From a virus, in UHGV virus genome UHGV-0066004: a DNA stretch of 64,000 nucleotides; one strand, given 5' to 3'. Of this stretch, positions 42,947-51,516 are shown piece by piece (the first letter of the stretch is position 1; every line of letters starts with the position of its first letter). The notes below the pieces were generated by a model. It made no database searches and was not told the DNA's origin. It saw only the letters and a program-made list of their open reading frames with translations. The translations under genes were made by a program, and so were the position numbers.

Positions 42947-42957
42947 AATATCTTAAG

Positions 42958-42990
42958 AGCCTCCTTAATTGGGGGCTTTTTAATTTTTAT
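42958..42990 (+). terminator. rho-independent terminator ending the plus-strand block
   Basis: gcctcc-ttaatt-gggggc hairpin followed by tttttaatttttat. Confidence 0.6.
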
Positions 42991-43080
42991 AAAATTTTAT
43001 CGGTTGTCCCAACCTCTGGGTCACCATCATATGTGAATAAAATATCTACCCTTCTTAACAACCTTCTTAATCTTACTCTC

Positions 43081-43112
43081 TATATAGTTATATAGTACTA
43101 TATAGTATCTTA
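43081..43112. repeat. tandem tatatagt repeats
   Basis: tatatagt x3 in direct tandem. Confidence 0.6.
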
Positions 43113-43539
43113 GTAACTATCTAGTGGTCTTAATAGCCCTCTGTATAGCCCTTCTAAATAGCCATCTAAACACTCTTCTAACAAACCTTCTTAACAATCT
43201 ATACAATCACCTTAACCATCTCTCTACATCCTCTTAGAAGCTCCTATACACCTCTTAATCTCTATGTTAGCTATGTTACTCTCTATAGGTGTTCACTAGG
43301 AAATACTAAGCCTCTATATAGACTGTTTTAACAAACTTAACAGGAATATCTTTACAGGCCTTATCTCACAAGGTCTAACACGGTACTAACAAGGTATCTT
43401 ATAAGCCTGTTTCTACCTGTATTTTTAAAAGACTGTATAGGTAATTATTCAGAATTTTAAAATTTTTATAAAATAGGACTATCAAGTCATTTTTTAGGGT
43501 CTTTGAAGGAACTGAAAAATATCTGTAGAAGATGTATAT

Positions 43540-44090
43540 CTGCTTGGTAGCCCTTAACAGCTCCCTTACAAGTACTTTGCAAAATTTTAAAATATCCTTA
43601 ACAATCTCTTAACAGCTCTCACATCTTCTTAACAACTCTTCAAAGGTCTTAACAGACTCTTAACAGAACTAACAAGGGTGTAACAGTTTCTTAACAGTTG
43701 ATACATAGGCTTAACAGAATCTTAACAGATGACTAACAAGAGCTAACAAGTTAATTTTAAAGAGTTATTTTGTTAAGATAATTAACAAGTTTCTAACAAG
43801 TGTTTAATCTTTTTAACAAGCTATTAACACGGTCACTATCTCTGGTCTTATCGTTCCCTTCTCCTCTTAGTGATTCTTTAAACATACCTCTTAAAAGCTC
43901 TCTATAGCTCTTTATAGGCTCTTTTAAGCATCTTCCTAGTATTTACCCCTCAACTGTATGGATAGCTCTTTATAAGGCTTTACAGGAGCTTTTAAGGCTA
44001 TGCCAAAGATTCTTACAAGGCTTTTACGTGGTCTTAACAGAGATTTAACAAGGGGCTAACAAGTTGCTAACAAGTGCCTTAAAAGCATAA
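43540..44090. repeat. iteron array: about 20 direct copies of CTTAACAG / CTAACAAG-type motif
   Basis: visible by eye; no ORF over 60 aa in 42950-44560. Confidence 0.7.
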
Positions 44091-44101
44091 CTATGTAGGG
44101 T

Positions 44102-44152
44102 TTGTTAAGAAATTGTTAAGAAATTGTTAAGAAAATGTTAAGAAAATGTTAA
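44102..44152. repeat. five tandem copies of TTGTTAAGAAA (inverse of the upstream iteron)
   Basis: ttgttaagaaa x5 head-to-tail, facing the direct array. Confidence 0.75.
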
Positions 44153-44580
44153 GGGGGCTAGCATTTACGTAACTTTATAGCCTCTTTTACGTAACTTTTA
44201 AGCTACTTTTAAGCCCCTATAACATACTTTTAAGACAATAACAAGCCCTTTATAGTAGTTCACAAGAATACTAACGAGATGATAAAGCTTACACCCTTAT
44301 AAGATTCTTTTAAGGCTCTGGGAAGCTCTAGGAAGGGCTTTTTAGAGTGGGTTAATATGATTGCTTAAGTTAGGTTGATAAGGCTGTTATAGAGCTTTAT
44401 AGAGCGTTTTAGTGGTTGCCCTTCCCTTTCGGGTTATGGGCTTACATTTAAGGGAAAGATTAAGTTGATTTGATAAAAGGCTATAGAGTAGACTATAGAG
44501 TTATTGCTTTTTAAGGTCTGGTAAAGTTCTGACTTGTTAGGTGGGTTTTAAGATTCTGGAAAGGAATTTGATAGACGTAA

Positions 44581-44635
44581 AAAAGCCCCATTTAAGGGGC
44601 TGTAAAGGTATCTGGGGCTATTTAGCCCCGTTGCG
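44581..44635 (-). terminator. tandem terminator hairpins ending the minus-strand early block
   Basis: agcccc-attta-aggggct and ctggggc-tattta-gccccg hairpins; minus-strand reading gives U-run after the first. Confidence 0.55.
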
Positions 44636-44639
44636 GCGT

Positions 44640-44888
44640 TTAGTTAGTGCCTTCTTTGTCGTAGTACAGGGAGACGATTTTTTCTCCCCAATAGTGATAA
44701 GTGTGACCATGCGTAAGAACTTCCTGTTTTGTTTCCTCCCAGAATTCATCAGAGGGGTTGTAGTCACTGATGGTCTGACTGATAAGGCCTTTCACCATTT
44801 CAAAGGCGTTATCAGTACCTACAAGGTCAAATTTAACGTCCAGAGAGTAGAAGCCAAATTCGTTAACAGTTGCGCGGATAGTAGCCAT
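44640..44888 (-). CDS. hypothetical early protein
   Basis: 82 aa; preceded by conserved upstream cassette. Confidence 0.55.
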   Translation of the reverse strand: MATIRATVNEFGFYSLDVKFDLVGTDNAFEMVKGLISQTISDYNPSDEFWEETKQEVLTHGHTYHYWGEKIVSLYYDKEGTN

Positions 44889-44975
44889 TTTAGAATCTCC
44901 AGTTTAGGAAGTTGATTAAGGGTTTTATTTAGTGGGGAAGGTCATTCCCTCCCCGTTGATTGACAATTTACAGAC
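44889..44975 (-). repeat. conserved upstream cassette, family 1 (hairpin GGGGAAGG-TCATT-CCCTCCCC + RBS)
   Basis: near-identical ~80-bp sequence recurs before six minus-strand genes. Confidence 0.7.
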
Positions 44976-45498
44976 TTTTGATTGTTTCGTCAATATCTTT
45001 TTCAATATCTTTTAAAGTTTTTTCTAAGTTCTTGATATTGAAAGATAATCCTTCTCCCAGTGTCTTAGAGTAACCGCTAGGACGTGAGTCATATAGTTCA
45101 ATTTCTTCTACTTCGAAGAGGCTAACCAACTCACCGCTTACACTGTAAGCCATTGAAACAGTATTTACAGGGGCTTTATAGAACTTGTTCAAGGACTTGA
45201 TAGAACGTTCATAAGCCATTTTATAACCGTTTAAAAGGTTTTTAACGTGGTTACGAACGTTTTTACACTCATCTAGATAAATCTCTAAGAATAACGGTAA
45301 TAACTCCGCTACAGCTTGCATAAAGTGAGAGACTACAACGGTTGCAACATTACGACGATGTACATAATAAGCCCCGTTTTCTGATTTGGTGATGGTTGCA
45401 AAGTGTACCCCATTACAACGGAACTCATATGTGTCTTTAACAGGCTTAGACATTACAGCATTTGAACGAATGTAGTTGATAGCTTTAAACTTGTTCAT
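44968..45498 (-). CDS. hypothetical early protein
   Basis: 176-aa ORF. Confidence 0.55.
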   Translation of the reverse strand: MNKFKAINYIRSNAVMSKPVKDTYEFRCNGVHFATITKSENGAYYVHRRNVATVVVSHFMQAVAELLPLFLEIYLDECKNVRNHVKNLLNGYKMAYERSIKSLNKFYKAPVNTVSMAYSVSGELVSLFEVEEIELYDSRPSGYSKTLGEGLSFNIKNLEKTLKDIEKDIDETIKSL

Positions 45499-45570
45499 TT
45501 TGACTCTCCTAGTTTAAGGATTTTATTTAGTGGGGAGGGATGACCTCCCGTTGATTAGTAATTTACTTGT
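45499..45570 (-). repeat. conserved upstream cassette, family 1 variant
   Basis: ggggagggatgacctcccg hairpin variant plus shared RBS. Confidence 0.6.
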
Positions 45571-45717
45571 TTTGATAGCTGATTGCAAGCAATTTTTTAA
45601 GCTTATCTATAAAGAATCTTTTAAGTGAATCCCTTTTAGATAAACCCCCTCGAACAAAGTTACCAATGTCAAGGGGTATTGTCAACACTTTTTTAAAAGT
45701 TTTTTATAAGTTATTGA

Positions 45718-46059
45718 TTAACTGATGAATATTTTTTCAGGTTTTACATAGCTGATACGCTGACTTTTTAGCAGGTCATCCCAGATTAGAGCGGCAATAT
45801 GAGGATAACCGGATTCACGTAAGAGCTTCATTGTTTTACTTCTCGTTTCAAAACGGCTTGCGTAGTACTCACTATTCAGAGTTGTTTTCTTCCCTTCGTT
45901 GTCTACATGGATAATCTGCATCACTTGAAAGGGGCTTGTGTCCTCGCCTTTGTTCCACTGTTCAAAGTATTTTAGGCACTGCATAGGCGACATCTTATCA
46001 CTAACCTGAGTTGACCAAGATGCGCCAGCTTTATCGGTAATTACGGTTACATAAGACAT
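45718..46059 (-). CDS. hypothetical early protein
   Basis: 113-aa ORF. Confidence 0.55.
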   Translation of the reverse strand: MSYVTVITDKAGASWSTQVSDKMSPMQCLKYFEQWNKGEDTSPFQVMQIIHVDNEGKKTTLNSEYYASRFETRSKTMKLLRESGYPHIAALIWDDLLKSQRISYVKPEKIFIS

Positions 46060-46140
46060 TTTTGAATCTCCTAGTTTAAGGACTTTACTTAGTGGGGAAG
46101 GTCATTCCCTCCCCGTTGATTGACAATTTACAGACTTTTA
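46060..46140 (-). repeat. conserved upstream cassette, family 1
   Basis: same sequence as copy at 44889. Confidence 0.7.
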
Positions 46141-46150
46141 TCAGGCTTGT

Positions 46151-46384
46151 CTAGTCTTTTTCAATGATAATTTCATATTGACCGTCAACGCTGTCAAAAT
46201 AGATGCCGTCTTCATCTTCTGTCTTAAAGTAGCATTGTATATCATCACTTGCGGGATAGTCTTGCCGTGCTATCTGGCAAGCTTGAATAGCGTTTTCTTT
46301 ACTTCCTGTGAACTCCTCAAGCCCTTTAAAATCACATGAATGGCCATTACAAATTGAGAGGATGAGATAAATGGTTGTAAGCAT
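46151..46384 (-). CDS. hypothetical small secreted protein
   Basis: 77 aa; hydrophobic N-terminus. Confidence 0.5.
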   Translation of the reverse strand: MLTTIYLILSICNGHSCDFKGLEEFTGSKENAIQACQIARQDYPASDDIQCYFKTEDEDGIYFDSVDGQYEIIIEKD

Positions 46385-46447
46385 GATTTAAGCCCTCTAA
46401 ATGGCCCTGTATGGGCCTTAAGTTGGAAATTAGTGTCTTTGTACTGC

Positions 46448-47014
46448 TTAGTCTAAAAAGTCGCTTAGATTGCGCTCTGTGAGATTCTCGGTAATTTTAT
46501 CCAGCAGGTCACAAAACAAAGAAGAAGTATCCCCGCTATTCTGTACAATTTTTGCAATACTCAACAAATCATCGTCAATATAGCCCAAATTGCGGTTAGT
46601 TGTATCAGGTACAAAGAATGGCGCATACATTGCACTAAATTTCGTCGAGTGAATACCGATAATCCAATCTTTATCAAAGTAACCGGTAAAGCTGGCGATT
46701 TCGCTCATGTTGTCACAAGAATAATCGTCCTCAAGTTCTTCCTCTGGGATATCCATCTCAATTACAATCACTTCCTGCGTTTCCATTTGGAAAGCTGCCG
46801 TAATAAGCCCCGACTCTAAAGCGTTTTGAATGCAGCGTTCACGGATGTAAGAGGCTTCTTCATCTTCCAGGCATTCCGTCTTGATAATCTTATCCATCGG
46901 GTAAACGTAAAAACAATCATCCATGTAAGAGCAGTTCCAGATACCTTCCGGCTTGTCGCCACCTTTAAGCAGGTTTACAAAGTTTTTCAGAGTAGTGCCG
47001 TGATAGCATTTCAT
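46448..47014 (-). CDS. hypothetical early protein
   Basis: 188 aa, acidic. Confidence 0.55.
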   Translation of the reverse strand: MKCYHGTTLKNFVNLLKGGDKPEGIWNCSYMDDCFYVYPMDKIIKTECLEDEEASYIRERCIQNALESGLITAAFQMETQEVIVIEMDIPEEELEDDYSCDNMSEIASFTGYFDKDWIIGIHSTKFSAMYAPFFVPDTTNRNLGYIDDDLLSIAKIVQNSGDTSSLFCDLLDKITENLTERNLSDFLD

Positions 47015-47100
47015 TTTTGAATCTCCTAGTTTAAGGATTTAGTGGTAAAGCTCTTTATCTGGGGCTTACTTTATCGAACTATAAGCCCCTTGTAAAGTAC
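47015..47100 (-). repeat. conserved upstream cassette, family 2 (hairpin GGGGCTTA-N13-TAAGCCCC + RBS)
   Basis: near-identical sequence recurs before five minus-strand genes. Confidence 0.7.
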
Positions 47101-47101
47101 T

Positions 47102-47305
47102 TTATTTGTTATTTTTGACAACTTTTAAAACTGCAAGATAACCTAAGCAATAAGAATCACCGAAGAGAGTCCTACCCATGAAAGAATCCTCTGCAATATC
47201 TTTCGCCGTGACGGTTTTTTCTACGCCGTGAAAGAGAACTACATCACCAACTTTAATATCTTTGATGTGTGTAGTTTCAATGGTTAAGCCGTTAATAATA
47301 GCCAT
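47102..47305 (-). CDS. hypothetical small protein
   Basis: 67-aa ORF. Confidence 0.45.
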   Translation of the reverse strand: MAIINGLTIETTHIKDIKVGDVVLFHGVEKTVTAKDIAEDSFMGRTLFGDSYCLGYLAVLKVVKNNK

Positions 47306-47400
47306 TTTGAATCTCCTAGTTTAAGGACTTTACTTAGTGGGGAAGGTCATTCCCTCCCCGTTGATGTGTAATTTAATCTATCTAAAAACCAGTGTCAACA
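47306..47400 (-). repeat. conserved upstream cassette, family 1
   Basis: sequence repeat. Confidence 0.7.
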
Positions 47401-47405
47401 GTTTT

Positions 47406-47810
47406 TTAGAGTTCTGCATAAATTGCGTCACAGATATCACGGAAGTCGTGATTTGATAGGTTACGTTGTAACCAAGTGGCGAAAAAGTCAGCGATTGCAT
47501 AATTGGCATCGTAGTCAACTGATAGCCACACTTTTACGGCGAATCTGAACATTTTTAAATCAAGCTCTTTATTCATTACCTTAGATTTGCCCAACATGTC
47601 GACCATTTCATATTGTGCGCCGTCTAGCGTGATACCTGCTGCAACGTCAGCCAATGAGCTTTTTACGTTTTCAATGTCTAAGATAACACTTTGAATCTTT
47701 CCGATAATGTTGTGCAATGTCTCATCAGGTGCTGATGACGTGATAACATTAATCCGGTTAACGGTCAAACGTGCTTTTAAGATTGATAACTCACGGTTGT
47801 TAATAGCCAT
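47406..47810 (-). CDS. hypothetical early protein
   Basis: 134-aa ORF. Confidence 0.55.
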   Translation of the reverse strand: MAINNRELSILKARLTVNRINVITSSAPDETLHNIIGKIQSVILDIENVKSSLADVAAGITLDGAQYEMVDMLGKSKVMNKELDLKMFRFAVKVWLSVDYDANYAIADFFATWLQRNLSNHDFRDICDAIYAEL

Positions 47811-47895
47811 TTTAGAATCTCCAATTTAGGATTTAGTGGTAAAGCTCTTTATCTGGGGCTTACTTTATCGAACTATAAGCCCCCTGTAAAGTACT
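47811..47895 (-). repeat. conserved upstream cassette, family 2
   Basis: sequence repeat. Confidence 0.7.
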
Positions 47896-47896
47896 T

Positions 47897-48169
47897 TTAC
47901 ACTAAATGCAGCTTTTTACCTTTTACCATGATGTAACTCGATGCGCTATTGCTACAAACATCTTGATAAATTCTGCGCAAACGTCCTTCGTAGTGTACTT
48001 TCCAACTAGTTGGAATCTTTTTACCATATCCGGTAGCAGTTTTTTGGAGTCCTGCTACTTGCCAATCTAAGATATGTTGCTCAGCTTGTAAATCCTCAAA
48101 GCACATTACACCATCTACATAGTGACGTAAAGTTACATTTAAAGTGCGACCGTTGTTAGTAGTATACAT
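47897..48169 (-). CDS. hypothetical early protein
   Basis: 90-aa ORF. Confidence 0.5.
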   Translation of the reverse strand: MYTTNNGRTLNVTLRHYVDGVMCFEDLQAEQHILDWQVAGLQKTATGYGKKIPTSWKVHYEGRLRRIYQDVCSNSASSYIMVKGKKLHLV

Positions 48170-48258
48170 TTTTGAATCACCTAGTTTAAGGACTTTATTT
48201 AGTGGGGAAGGTCATTCCCTCCCCGTTGATGTGTAATTTAATCTATCTAAAAACCAGT
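48170..48258 (-). repeat. conserved upstream cassette, family 1
   Basis: sequence repeat. Confidence 0.7.
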
Positions 48259-48259
48259 G

Positions 48260-48592
48260 TCAAGAATTTTGTTTTCGTTTGCTCAATTCTTGAACAATTA
48301 CAGCGTAGTAGTCTTTTAAGTCAATGATATTTAAAGCATTTATCAGAGAATTATAATCATCAACTAACTGGAAATCATCTTTGAAGATGTCACTTATCTG
48401 ATAGGTTTTCGCTTTATATCTGAAGCTCATCTCTAGCCGCTTTATTTGCTCATCACTGAGACGCCCTAGAAAGCTTTCTACAAGGTTATTGCTAACCTGC
48501 TGTGTGATTGCCTTATTTGCTAGATTATAGGCTTTATATGCCTTATAGAGCGCGAGAATGGCAATGATTGCAGTGATGCCAGTCATTAACAT
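48260..48592 (-). CDS. hypothetical membrane protein
   Basis: 110 aa; N-terminal hydrophobic segment. Confidence 0.5.
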   Translation of the reverse strand: MLMTGITAIIAILALYKAYKAYNLANKAITQQVSNNLVESFLGRLSDEQIKRLEMSFRYKAKTYQISDIFKDDFQLVDDYNSLINALNIIDLKDYYAVIVQELSKRKQNS

Positions 48593-48882
48593 GGTGTTTC
48601 CTCTTTACGTGATACTTTGCCATTTACAGATATCTCATAAGAATCTAGCAAATCACTTTTAGACTTTACTGGACTTTTAAAAGTATCATCATAAATATTT
48701 ACTTGCAATACAGGTTTTTTGTACTCCCTGCAGCTATTCCATAAGCAAATCACTACGCGACGGCCTTTGATTTTTCCGTGTAACCATTCCATAACATCGT
48801 GGCTATTTCTTGATGTCTCGATAAAATCAATTTTGTTGAGTAACTTGCTTAGATTTTCACGGACTTTATTTGACAATTTCAT
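48586..48882 (-). CDS. hypothetical early protein
   Basis: 98-aa ORF. Confidence 0.5.
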   Translation of the reverse strand: MKLSNKVRENLSKLLNKIDFIETSRNSHDVMEWLHGKIKGRRVVICLWNSCREYKKPVLQVNIYDDTFKSPVKSKSDLLDSYEISVNGKVSRKEETPC

Positions 48883-48965
48883 TTTTGAATCTCCAGTTTA
48901 GGATTTAGTGGTAAAGCTCTTTATCTGGGGCTTAAGATATCAACTTTTAAGCCCCCTGTAAAGTA
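48883..48965 (-). repeat. conserved upstream cassette, family 2 (variant loop)
   Basis: sequence repeat. Confidence 0.65.
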
Positions 48966-48970
48966 CTTTA

Positions 48971-49276
48971 TCAGTTAATTTTCAGTTTTGCATAGCCTCT
49001 GATTGTTCGAATGGGGGAGGTTAAGGCCACGCGTTTGATATATGATTTTTTAGTGTATACGTTTGTTTTACCGAGTGTTTCCACACCTTTAAAAAGGTTA
49101 TTTGAACTGCGTTTCAAGGTTAAATGTTTATCAACCTTTACGCCCCATCTTACAGCAGACTGTTTTCCGTTGTCAACCACTTTCCCGCATAACTTTTTAG
49201 CCATGATACGAGCGTCATCACGAGTCTTTGCGGTAATTACAACGTTTTTGATAATAGCCATTTTTAAGTTCTCCAA
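48971..49276 (-). CDS. hypothetical early protein
   Basis: 101-aa basic ORF. Confidence 0.5.
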   Translation of the reverse strand: MENLKMAIIKNVVITAKTRDDARIMAKKLCGKVVDNGKQSAVRWGVKVDKHLTLKRSSNNLFKGVETLGKTNVYTKKSYIKRVALTSPIRTIRGYAKLKIN

Positions 49277-49347
49277 TTTAGGATTTAGTGGTAAAGCTCT
49301 TTATCTGGGGCTTACTTTATCGAACTATAAGCCCCTTGTAAAGTACT
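49262..49347 (-). repeat. conserved upstream cassette, family 2
   Basis: sequence repeat. Confidence 0.7.
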
Positions 49348-49731
49348 TTATTTGTTAATTTTGAAGATAGTTACATAACCATCGCTGCCGATGATTTGTG
49401 ATGCTCCAGCTTTTTCTACTTGATAGCCCATATTTTCAAGATGGTAAACAGCATCATCATAACCATATGCGCCGCCCTGATAACGTCTCTTATCACATCT
49501 TACTAATACCTTTCCACGTCCTGCCAGTGCATTTAGTACGGCTTTTTCACTTGAAAGTGTACCATCTAACATGGTTGCCGTGTAATGGTTGATTCTATTC
49601 CCGTTTACATCATACTTAAAATTGAATGCGTGAACAACGATAATGTTACCTTTAAAATTTTCATCAAGTGACTTCTCCAGTGCGTTGCGAAAGTTGTCTT
49701 TGTTGATGAATTTAGGTGCACGATATGCCAT
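49348..49731 (-). CDS. hypothetical early protein
   Basis: 127-aa ORF. Confidence 0.55.
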   Translation of the reverse strand: MAYRAPKFINKDNFRNALEKSLDENFKGNIIVVHAFNFKYDVNGNRINHYTATMLDGTLSSEKAVLNALAGRGKVLVRCDKRRYQGGAYGYDDAVYHLENMGYQVEKAGASQIIGSDGYVTIFKINK

Positions 49732-49820
49732 TTTTGAATCTCCTAGTTTAAGGGTTAATTTGGTAAAGCTCTTTATCTGGGGCTTACTTTATCGAACTAT
49801 AAGCCCCTTGTAAAGTACTT
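49732..49820 (-). repeat. conserved upstream cassette, family 2
   Basis: sequence repeat. Confidence 0.7.
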
Positions 49821-49821
49821 T

Positions 49822-50043
49822 TTATTTATCGTAGTAGTAAATTGCTGTCTGTCTCGTAAATTTTTTAGTATTTCTTGTAAGGTAGCAATTAGAGTTTATA
49901 GCTGTTTCTACATAGTTGCAATAGTCAGCTTCTGATATTCTGGACCATACGCCACAGATTTGCATGTAAAAACGTTTTGCCTTTGTGTTAACGTTAGTTG
50001 TAACCATCAATTCGCGACTGTAAAGCATTATTTCGCGCTCCAT
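49822..50043 (-). CDS. hypothetical small protein
   Basis: 73-aa ORF. Confidence 0.45.
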   Translation of the reverse strand: MEREIMLYSRELMVTTNVNTKAKRFYMQICGVWSRISEADYCNYVETAINSNCYLTRNTKKFTRQTAIYYYDK

Positions 50044-50216
50044 TTCTCAAAGAGTTCAGCAGGGAAACGTTCGCTATACCCTTTTAAGGAAAAAGTATTA
50101 TCTTTGTGGATAGCTTCCACCTGATAAACCTTATAAGAGCGTATAGTTAGCATTTTGTAAGAGTATTCGTGCTTAATGTTAACCTCATCGCCAACTTTAA
50201 TTTTTCTTGATGCCAT
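50028..50216 (-). CDS. hypothetical small protein
   Basis: 62-aa ORF. Confidence 0.45.
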   Translation of the reverse strand: MASRKIKVGDEVNIKHEYSYKMLTIRSYKVYQVEAIHKDNTFSLKGYSERFPAELFEKWSAK

Positions 50217-50285
50217 TTTTGAATCTCCAGTTTAGGATTTTATTTAGTGGGGAAGGTCATTCCCTCCCCGTTGATGTAAATATTA
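50217..50285 (-). repeat. conserved upstream cassette, family 1
   Basis: sequence repeat. Confidence 0.7.
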
Positions 50286-50469
50286 GATAACCACGTTCAA
50301 AGAGTCAATAAAAATTTTAAAAATATTTTTGGCAAAACTGTAATGAAACGGGTGCGCACGACTACCACAAAACAGAACGCAAATCAAGAATTATTTTTCA
50401 ATCCGCTACAAATTTTTCTCTTGACTTTTGGGGAGAGGAAGAGGGGGAGAGGGGTTGGGCTGGCTGTCT

Positions 50470-50665
50470 ATAAAAACCTACCTGCACAATTCTAAAATGA
50501 TTTTTCTTGCCCGACCTGAGCGGGGTCTGCACGTTTTGAAAATGAAAAAGCTCTTTGGAGATTACCTGCACAGTTTGAAAATGAATTTTCTCTTTGGAGT
50601 TCAAAATTCTCTCTACAGATTTCTCTACAGAACTCTACCTGCACAATTCTAAAATGAAAAAGCCC
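50470..50665. repeat. four direct repeats of CCTGCACA(A/G)TT(C/T)(T/G)AAAATGA in a non-coding gap
   Basis: copies near 50476, 50526, 50562 and 50636; no credible ORF. Confidence 0.6.
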
Positions 50666-50730
50666 TCCTTACCTGAAAAATTTACCAGATAAGAAAGGCT
50701 TAGGCTATTGTGAATATACTACAGAGTTTC

Positions 50731-51516
50731 TTAGTTCTTTGCGTCTAAGAAGGTAACTTCTGGTGAAGAGAAGATTGCCTCGATATCCTCATCAGTTCTT
50801 GCATAGATATAAGCTTCTGCATCACTACCAAATGTTACAGCAATTCTGTGATTGCTCTTTGACAGGTGGGTAACTAGAGCGTTACTTAGAGACATCTTTT
50901 CAACCGGAGGGTTACTTTGATGTATCTTACCTTTTCTTCGTCTGAAGAGGGTAACTGCGTTATCTGTGAACACTGCTACACCTGCAAAGTATTCTGGTTC
51001 ACAGTAGTTCTTCCAACCTGAGCGTAACTTGTGGTACATCTCGCCTTCATAGACATACAGATAAACATCTACACTCTTCATCACCTGATTGATGATAACT
51101 GTGATGGCTTGAGGGTCAAGTCCACCGATACCTGCACCAATCATAGGTAAACCAACTTTCTTCAACTGATTAACTTCACAGTATCTGTTAAGCTGTTTCA
51201 AAGATGACTCTAAAGCACTGTATCGGGCATCTTTACCAGTCTTAAGCTGAGTGTAAAGGTTAGCTATACGACCTTGTTTTAAGCGTGCTACAGAGAAATT
51301 ACCTAGTAAATTCTCACAGGGTTTGTGACCTATACCACCTGCATAGAGATAAACTTCTGTATCGGTCTCATATGCTTTTGGGTAAAGTTTAGAAATCTTG
51401 TCAGCGATACCTGCGCCCATTAGGTTCATGCAGTTACAACCATGACCAATGATGTCAAACTTACCTTTATCAAATGCAGCAAAGATATCACCATTGATGA
51501 TTTTTACAATACCCAT
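50731..51516 (-). CDS. macrodomain protein (TARG1/DarG-like ADP-ribose hydrolase fold) with C-terminal extension
   Basis: 261 aa; GDIF ... GHGCNCMNLMGAGIA and VGLPMIGAGIGG match the TARG1/DarG macrodomain pattern. Confidence 0.7.
   Translation of the reverse strand: MGIVKIINGDIFAAFDKGKFDIIGHGCNCMNLMGAGIADKISKLYPKAYETDTEVYLYAGGIGHKPCENLLGNFSVARLKQGRIANLYTQLKTGKDARYSALESSLKQLNRYCEVNQLKKVGLPMIGAGIGGLDPQAITVIINQVMKSVDVYLYVYEGEMYHKLRSGWKNYCEPEYFAGVAVFTDNAVTLFRRRKGKIHQSNPPVEKMSLSNALVTHLSKSNHRIAVTFGSDAEAYIYARTDEDIEAIFSSPEVTFLDAKN

Follow-up and report, generated by a model that had tools for sequence, protein, structure and literature searches.

Probable PeSL-type cassettes with predicted promoters and conserved stem-loops in a hyperplastic gene array of a Felix O1-like phage

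Nearly every small gene in one minus-strand array of the virus genome UHGV-0066004 follows a near-identical sequence of about 95 bases, which raises the question of what these repeated cassettes do for the genes behind them. We analyzed a stretch of 64,000 nucleotides of this genome (the window), which belongs to a Felixounavirus (Felix O1-like myovirus) of the subfamily Ounavirinae; its array region (44.4–50.6 kb) matches relatives at ~87–92% identity, the closest being Escherichia phages JLBYU28 and dune. We consider it likely, based on sequence comparison, that the cassettes are composite regulatory elements of the promoter-early stem-loop (PeSL) type, which also act as portable homology for module exchange. 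Each cassette would combine a promoter recognized by the host's sigma-70 RNA polymerase, a stem-loop that folds stably in the sense RNA, and a nearly invariant A/U-rich ribosome-binding region.

Two cassette families in one gene array

The array is formed by 14 genes and is equivalent to the block of Felix O1 genes 14–23, between the published terminators t13 and t23. Its minus strand carries eleven cassettes of ~95 bases between 44,886 and 50,308, six of family 1 (F1) and five of family 2 (F2). Pattern searches allowing up to three mismatches retrieved the perfect F1 hairpin and the F2 core five times each, along with the ribosome-binding segment common to both families. All hits lie on the minus strand at 44.9–50.3 kb, with a chance expectation of 0 in shuffled sequence; this confirmed the two families of six and five copies reported by a first-pass annotation of the window. 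Looser searches found no cassettes outside the array in the 64-kb window. The cassettes share one orientation, and each extends from the upstream gene's stop codon to the next ATG. The cassettes are as follows, with predicted promoter elements (−35 and −10) and the Shine–Dalgarno (SD) sequence:

F1a, 50214..50308, minus strand: array's first promoter; −35 TTGACT 50308–50303, −10 TAATAT 50285–50280, hairpin 50269–50249, SD GGAG 50228–50225, ATG 50216
F2a, 49729..49822, minus strand: −35 TTTACA 49814–49809, −10 TAAAGT 49791–49786, inner hairpin 49807–49779, SD 49743–49740, ATG 49731
F2b, 49259..49350, minus strand: extended hairpin 49350–49292, beginning at the upstream stop TAA, −35 49342–49337, −10 TAAAGT 49319–49314, SD 49274–49271, ATG 49261
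F2c, 48880..48970, minus strand: loop variant; extended hairpin 48970–48912, −35 48962–48957, −10 TATCTT 48939–48934 with TG before it, SD 48894–48891, ATG 48882
F1b, 48167..48263, minus strand: −35 TTGACA 48263–48258, containing the upstream stop TGA, −10 TAAATT 48240–48235, hairpin 48224–48204, SD GGTG 48181–48178, ATG 48169
F2d, 47808..47898, minus strand: −35 47890–47885, −10 TAAAGT 47867–47862, inner hairpin 47883–47855, SD 47822–47819, ATG 47810
F1c, 47303..47398, minus strand: −35 TTGACA 47398–47393, −10 TAAATT 47375–47370, predicted transcription start 47363–47361, hairpin 47359–47339, SD 47316–47313, ATG 47305
F2e, 47012..47104, minus strand: extended hairpin 47104–47046 (−25.2 kcal/mol, z = −4.7), −35 47096–47091, −10 TAAAGT 47073–47068, predicted start A 47060, SD 47026–47023, ATG 47014
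F1d, 46057..46153, minus strand: −35 TAGACA 46153–46148, containing the upstream stop TAG, −10 TAAATT 46130–46125, hairpin 46114–46094, SD 46071–46068, ATG 46059
F1e, 45496..45588, minus strand: −35 TTGCAA 45588–45583, −10 TAAATT 45565–45560, flipped and shortened hairpin GGGAGG-TCATC-CCTCCC 45549–45532, SD 45509–45506, ATG 45498
F1f, 44886..44993, minus strand: −35 TTGACG 44993–44988, −10 TAAATT 44970–44965, whose TAA is the upstream stop codon, hairpin 44954–44934, 11-nt leader insertion, SD 44900–44897, ATG 44888

Five of the six F1 cassettes contain an identical hairpin, GGGGAGGG-AATGA-CCTTCCCC, the sixth being the variant before the ATG at 45498, and all five F2 cassettes contain GGGGCTTA-N13-TAAGCCCC, followed by AGATAAAGAGCTTTACC. 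Alignments of each family showed that F1 and F2 share the ribosome-binding segment CCT(T)AAACT(A)GGAGATTCAAAA-ATG, in line with the common ribosome-binding and start segment of the first-pass annotation. This common leader is unstructured and A/U-rich, with a GGAG SD sequence. Upstream stop codons are built into the cassettes, namely in the −35 (TGA 48262, TAG 46153), in the −10 (TAA 44970), or as the opening of the F2 outer stem (TAA). The extent given previously fell ~25 nt short at its right end, where the first −35 lies, and the statement that nearly every small gene has a cassette applies to 11 of the 14 genes. Two of the remaining genes (starts 50043 and 48592) overlap the preceding gene, and the third (start 46384) has a different small hairpin upstream, GGCCC-ATACA-GGGCC in 46385–46447, where a spacer of 63–67 nt is kept in relatives. 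All array proteins fall into PHROGs of unknown function, and no Pfam domains were found in them.

The variant hairpin of F1e (45532–45549) resembles the reverse complement of the standard F1 hairpin minus three single bases (GGGAGGTCATCCCTCCCC vs. GGGGAAGGTCATTCCCTCCCC); it looks like a palindrome flip, judging from this match, and was not found in any of 15 related loci compared. F1e is also preceded by an unusually long spacer (~220 nt), in which 45590–45715 holds an extra sigma-70-like site (TTGACA-17-TAACTT near 45690–45660) and a GC-rich inverted repeat (ACCCCT...AGGGGT). The homologous site carries a promoter annotation in phage AYO145A.

Predicted promoter geometry and stem-loop structure

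No convincing sigma-70 −35/−10 pair had been found by eye in the first-pass annotation, a gap that is now closed by predicted hexamers at conserved spacing in both families. F1 cassettes are ordered as −35, a 17-bp spacer of unrelated sequence, TAAATT or TAATAT, NNNNATCAAC, and the hairpin, and the −35 takes the forms TTGACA, TTGACT, TTGACG, TAGACA, and TTGCAA in the window. This layout recurs in all 77 distinct copies (15 phages, three genera): the −35 and a TAnnnT −10 are always 17 bp apart, and precisely 10 nt separate the −10 from the first G of the hairpin. Spacers of at least six unrelated sequences share this constant length, and the F1 alignment further shows an A-rich stretch upstream of the −35. 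In F2, the 71 distinct copies (from the window and 62 loci) all carry TTTACA, which is invariant, and, 17 or 18 bp further on, TAnnnT. The F2 −10 sits in the hairpin loop and occurs in forms including TAAAGT, TATCTT, TAAGAT, TAGTAT, TACAGT, TATGAT, and TAGGAT. At the 17-bp register, its positions 1, 2, and 6 are conserved at 89–90% and positions 3–5 at 39% at most, and copies off this register all fit an 18-bp spacer. In the alignment, this conservation pattern is that of a sigma-70 −10 element, and the unpaired C14 and A15 of the F2 −35 are invariant as well. F1 is predicted to be the stronger promoter (TTGACN-17-TAAATT), and F2 the weaker one (TTTACA-17-TAnnnT), which would be buried in an interrupted hairpin.

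Two other promoter assignments were rejected. A T4-type middle promoter, formed by the MotA-box-like GCTTTA, 12 bp, and TAAACT in the F2 leader, would start transcription in or after the SD sequence, and the conservation of GCTTTA needs no MotA box because this motif pairs in the F2 outer stem. A second promoter starting from the downstream CTTTACC has no TAnnnT at 16–18 bp.

Both hairpins proposed previously are real, but needed correction. The F1 hairpin had been written as on the plus strand; in the mRNA sense, it reads GGGGAGGG-AAUGA-CCUUCCCC, with AAUGA as the loop and one G·U pair. F1 fragments containing it fold at −14 to −19 kcal/mol, and the standard 21-nt hairpin alone at −13.7 kcal/mol. 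All 31 distinct F1 hairpins fold, including some with different stems, like GGGGAGG-GAAA-CTTCCCC and GGGGC-N8-GCCCC in Mooglevirus and Suspvirus. The F2 hairpin exceeds the length given in the first-pass annotation. In read-through RNA, its inner stem GGGGCUUA(U)/(G)UAAGCCCC is flanked by UAAAGU.CUUUA and UAAAG.GCUUUA, which pair with each other to give an interrupted stem of 19–20 bp (9 + 5 + 6 bp with 3 × 3 and 1 × 1 internal loops; −25.2 kcal/mol, z = −4.7 at F2e), and the upstream gene's stop codon marks its beginning. The high conservation of AGATAAAGAGCTTTACC is explained by its pairing in this extended stem.

Base changes follow these structures. Across four genera, the 63 distinct F2 sequences had 97.2% of their cells paired, compared with 53–57% when the partner was slid by one column. 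Three F2 pairs change on both sides (G-C to U-A), e.g., in the inner stem of an Erwinia phage (GGTG...CACC) and in the outer stem of a variant F2 form (F2'), and the covariation score was reached by 0 of 500 shuffles, although such scores are inflated by related sequences. Within the inner F2 helix, every one-sided change that keeps the pair gives a G·U in the sense strand (e.g., U-G 25 times at one pair). Folding was more stable for the sense than for the antisense strand in 23 of 31 F1 and 44 of 63 F2 sequences, and stem length varies from 4 to 9 bp. From these patterns, we conclude that the stem-loops are selected as folded sense-strand nucleic acid, most simply RNA. Rfam covariance models gave no match at E ≤ 1 in 44300–50800.

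Cassettes as junctions of exchanged gene modules

The window was compared to 12 other Felixounaviruses (13 in total), and to the phages Michonne (Mooglevirus), SUSP1 (Suspvirus), and M7 (Kolesnikvirus). Every Felixounavirus compared carries cassettes (7–12 per genome), i.e., none of these related phages lacks them. Michonne and SUSP1 keep both architectures, and Erwinia phage M7 keeps F2 in a diverged form; an F1 copy with the CAAC-GGG anchor was not recovered from M7. In IMG/VR, the F2 pattern is confined to contigs of 54–94 kb, where it occurs in same-strand clusters.

Gene content differs among the 13 Felixounaviruses by whole modules, which applies to the genes labeled g5, g9, g14, g17, g24, and g35, and to the block g6-g7-g13 (g13 counted as present in dune, PK6, and AYO145A per GenBank annotation). 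All seven presence/absence differences start and end within cassettes, as read from the junction sequences for six of them and from the gene map alone for g5. Two distinct crossover points each were found for g14 and g17. Phages without g14 either keep the complete upstream cassette (window, JLBYU28, wV8, and TP1) or have a hybrid joined at the −35 (Z31), and those without g17 are joined at TAAATT in two different ways. Furthermore, Felix O1 has the F1 promoter of g6 joined directly to g4, and both g9 and g4 stand behind F1 in some phages and behind F2 in others. This comparison of flanking genes, with insertion, deletion, and replacement junctions inside cassettes, bears out the modular gene shuffling that the first-pass annotation had proposed. 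Exceptions to the module rule are g27, which has no own cassette and is placed between g2 and a cassette, and the array's left edge, where variation takes other forms. Private hairpin variants are common to paralogous copies within one genome in nataliec, Z31, JLBYU28, AYO145A, and ASO1A, and this sharing of rare variants indicates gene conversion as a probable source.

The array is hyperplastic, as at least 80% of it is covered by only one of 259 related records, with best identities mostly at 80–95%. A structural-gene segment of equal length served as the control: of its 277 records, 253 reach a coverage of at least 80%, and 215 have their best identity at 95–99%.

Two further cassette forms were observed in the relatives. 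The JLBYU28 F1 cassette between g13 and g4 has a run of 12 G (GGGGGGGGGGGGTAACAACCTCCC) in place of the hairpin: either the cassette has degenerated, or the record has a homopolymer sequencing error. In Erwinia phage M7, the upstream regions 5255, 7754, and 8154 hold a third hairpin type (GGGGTTACGGTTATGAGACTATAACCCC) behind CTTTACA or TTGCAA, for which no convincing TAnnnT −10 could be placed at 16–18 bp.

Interpretation, rival readings, and flanking sequences

PeSLs were described in the T4-like phages RB49/phi1, T4/PST, and KVP40/nt-1 (Arbiol et al. 2010, PMC2839356; Comeau et al. 2014, PMC4122927). They comprise an upstream stop codon in an AT-rich stretch, a sigma-70 −35/−10, a GGGG...CCCC stem-loop with G-T pairs, an SD sequence, and the ATG, and they cluster in ORFan-rich hyperplastic regions and at indel junctions (PMC2839356; PMC4122927). 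Their stem-loop can be placed between −35 and −10, over the −10, or just downstream of it, and one RB49 PeSL stem-loop was shown to attenuate transcription (PMC2839356). The published description of PeSLs also includes strong promoter activity and mini-circles that arise when flanking cassettes recombine (PMC2839356; PMC4122927). The likeness to such cassettes that the first-pass annotation had noted is supported, since we found every sequence-level feature: the AT-rich upstream stretch, sigma-70-type boxes at 17 bp, the GGGG...CCCC stem-loop with G-T pairs, and the 3' SD-ATG. Two of these positional subclasses are represented, with the stem-loop between −35 and −10 and overlapping the −10 in F2, and just downstream of the −10 in F1. 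The F2 −35 TTTACA also fits the TTTACW reported for the T4/PST cassettes, and our copies likewise cluster in a hyperplastic ORFan region, with insertions, deletions, and replacements whose junctions fall in cassettes. In contrast to PeSLs, the cassettes belong to the subfamily Ounavirinae, a difference of taxonomic scope and not of mechanism; they occupy one array instead of several hyperplastic regions; they come in two sharply defined architectures of rigid geometry (10 nt from −10 to hairpin in F1); and the F2 stem-loop extends to 19–20 bp and takes in the upstream stop codon. Gene gain, loss, and swap at such cassettes were previously described only for T4-like phages.

How the parts would work together differs between the families. 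F1 transcripts are predicted to start 1–3 nt before the 8-bp GC-rich hairpin (e.g., at 47363–47361, with the hairpin from 47359). 5'-terminal stem-loops, such as the ompA leader, protect mRNA from decay that depends on the 5' end, and the F1 hairpin is alike in lying 1–3 nt from the predicted 5' end (start 7 (±1) nt after the −10). It could thus stabilize its own mRNA at the 5' end, and act as an intercistronic 3' hairpin in read-through RNA. The F2 transcript is predicted to start at the A after CCCC (e.g., 47060). As this start lies 3' of the inner hairpin, the full F2 hairpin would be present only in read-through RNA from upstream, where it may attenuate transcription or be a processing site (it resembles an RNase III site), leaving a protective 3' hairpin on the upstream RNA. 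Early genes of phage T7 are separated by RNase III processing sites. The F2 read-through stem is alike in its predicted shape (~20 bp; upper stem, internal loop, and lower stem), its intercistronic position, and the host-transcribed early region, and a cut in its internal loop would leave the upstream mRNA with a 3' hairpin. It differs in that it also contains a putative promoter and has no sequence similarity to the T7 sites. Near-identity and a common 3' third would make the cassettes portable homology for recombination, by which cassette-plus-gene modules would be inserted, deleted, or exchanged whole with the expression of their neighbors undisturbed.

The repeats themselves have been recorded before. 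The Felix O1 paper lists the same sequences only as 57-bp and 39-bp direct repeats and proposes no function (Whichard et al. 2010, PMC3185647); its 57-bp repeat (CTTTACATGGGGCTTA...CTTTACCACT) is F2, and its 39-bp repeat (TTGACACTGG...ACATCAAC) is the F1 promoter. They are labeled DR_1 to DR_9 in the wV8 GenBank record (EU877232), the wV8 genome paper mentions neither repeats nor promoters, and two later GenBank records annotate cassette pieces as 'promoter' and 'terminator'. A literature search, with subscription journals outside its coverage, revealed no paper linking PeSLs to Felix O1-like phages and no Felixounavirus transcriptome. The Felix O1 paper gives five candidate promoters only and states that organization and timing of transcription are not known (PMC3185647). 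Its end-point reverse transcription PCR covers the homologous block and shows a peak at 5 min for open reading frames (ORFs) 16, 20, 21, and 22 (PMC3185647 Table 3).

Several observations weigh against the PeSL reading. The first-pass suggestion of early expression holds for the four ORFs just named, but ORFs 14, 17, 19, and 23 peak at 25 min (PMC3185647 Table 3), so immediate-early behavior does not extend to the whole block. F1 and F2 genes are not clearly split between the two times. A generic promoter scan lists 10 of the 11 cassette sites, missing F1e alone, but its total for the region is no higher than in shuffles (20 vs. 16.8), which leaves positional conservation as the basis of the promoter case. 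In F2, the −10 hexamers (TAAAGT, TATCTT) are weak, and the conservation of TTTACA is partly explained by base pairing in the extended F2 stem. As few as two or three evolutionary events may underlie the double changes in the stems, and the asymmetry between sense and antisense stability is only moderate. Finally, no U-run was found after either hairpin (F1 is followed by ACUAAAUAAAG, F2 by AGAUAAAGAG), which rules out canonical intrinsic terminators, and a terminator scan gave none at the cassettes and only those at the two array ends.

Some of these points would fit cassettes that act purely at the RNA level. One long early transcript from the first promoter (50308–50280), perhaps with one or two more, would then run through inactive hexamers, and the cassettes would be processing or stabilizing hairpins combined with an ordinary ribosome-binding site, comparable to the RNase III sites that separate T7 early genes. 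The weak F2 −10, the partial pairing of TTTACA in the stem, the single terminator at each array end, and the extended F2 hairpin, which with ~20 bp and its 3 × 3 and 1 × 1 loops resembles the T7-type RNase III signal, agree with this explanation. We nevertheless regard it as improbable, since T and A are kept at two loop positions exactly 17–18 bp from TTTACA while neighboring loop positions vary, the unpaired C and A of the F2 −35 are invariant, and the F1 hexamers keep an exact 17-bp spacing around six unrelated spacers, upstream of the hairpin.

Alternatively, the inverted repeats could be DNA operators, at which a dimeric phage regulator binds the palindromes and shuts off or times the array, with RNA folding being incidental. 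The palindromes do overlap spacer and −10 (F2) or the start site (F1), which are usual repressor positions, and the peak at 25 instead of 5 min for half of the tested Felix O1 block genes would suit such timing. This is highly improbable in our view: stem sequences differ among families, copies, and genera while pairing is kept by compensatory and G·U-type changes, as expected for a folded strand and not for a sequence-specific DNA site. Likewise, the wobble changes of the inner F2 helix all fit the sense strand, stem length is variable, and no regulator was identified. That the cassettes are selfish, self-spreading repeats without a regulatory role, be it of the kind of miniature inverted-repeat transposable elements (MITEs) or as recombinase targets like integron attC sites, is hardly credible, even though they are near-identical, imperfectly palindromic, present in many copies, tied to gene cassettes of unknown function, and marked by signs of gene conversion. 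They occur in one array and one orientation only, with exact stop-to-ATG placement, the SD sequence in place, and conserved promoter geometry, but without terminal inverted repeats or target duplications, and the array encodes no integrase or transposase (its proteins are all of unknown function). An integron attC or MITE-like identity was rejected on the basis of orientation, placement, the missing recombinase, and an unmatched core-site consensus.

A bolder version of the PeSL reading, which we put forward tentatively and give a minor chance, is that F2 is doubly coded, i.e., one 60-nt sequence would serve as a sigma-70 promoter in DNA and as a processing hairpin in read-through RNA. A T7-type RNase III cut would be expected on the 3' side of the internal loop, and this is where the predicted F2 start lies. 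If so, initiated and processed transcripts would share nearly the same 5' end and leader, and a module would be expressed alike whatever lies upstream. Modules would thereby become freely exchangeable, and virulent phages beyond the T4 group could follow this as a general design rule in their hyperplastic regions.

Felix O1-like phages are widely used in the typing and biocontrol of Salmonella and E. coli, and their transcription is essentially unmapped. Per genome, the cassettes supply up to about a dozen well-supported candidates for host-type promoters, in a single block and with exact coordinates, and might be natural landing pads for engineering these phages. If they are PeSLs, as seems likely, the principle of uniform promoter–hairpin–ribosome-binding linkers, between which ORFan modules are swapped by homologous recombination, would not be confined to T4-like phages. 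It would span a second subfamily, with Felixounavirus, Mooglevirus, and Suspvirus, and with a more diverged F2 in Erwinia phage M7 (Kolesnikvirus). The cassettes would also account for this block being the most variable one in genomes that otherwise are ~98% identical.

The array is delimited by two terminators:

50661..50700, minus strand: upstream array boundary, intrinsic terminator ending the preceding operon, equivalent of Felix O1 t13 (PMC3185647 Table 2)
44584..44640, minus strand: array end, hairpin GGGGCTAAATAGCCCC + AGATACCTTTACA (half F2-like element), then intrinsic terminator GCCCCTTAAATGGGGCTTTTTT, equivalent of Felix O1 t23 (PMC3185647 Table 2)

At the array end, the half-F2 element (44605–44640) leads straight into the terminator hairpin (44601–44584, minus strand). 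Directly downstream follows a non-coding stretch of ~1.6 kb (42950–44580), which is crowded with short repeats of 10–12 bp period, including CTTAACAGACT (×6.8 at 43597–43667) and TTGTTAAGAAA (×4.7 at 44102–44153). The GenBank records of dune, JLBYU28, mio, and Z31 start at differing points in or near this region (43.0–44.4 kb), and the stretch may hold terminal repeat, packaging, or origin signals. At the other end, between the upstream terminator and the array's first promoter, four copies of a ~20-nt motif (CTGCACNNTTNNAAAATGA on the plus strand, TCATTTTNNAANNGTGCAG in gene sense) are spaced 39–73 nt apart at 50467–50672, and may represent a putative regulator binding site.

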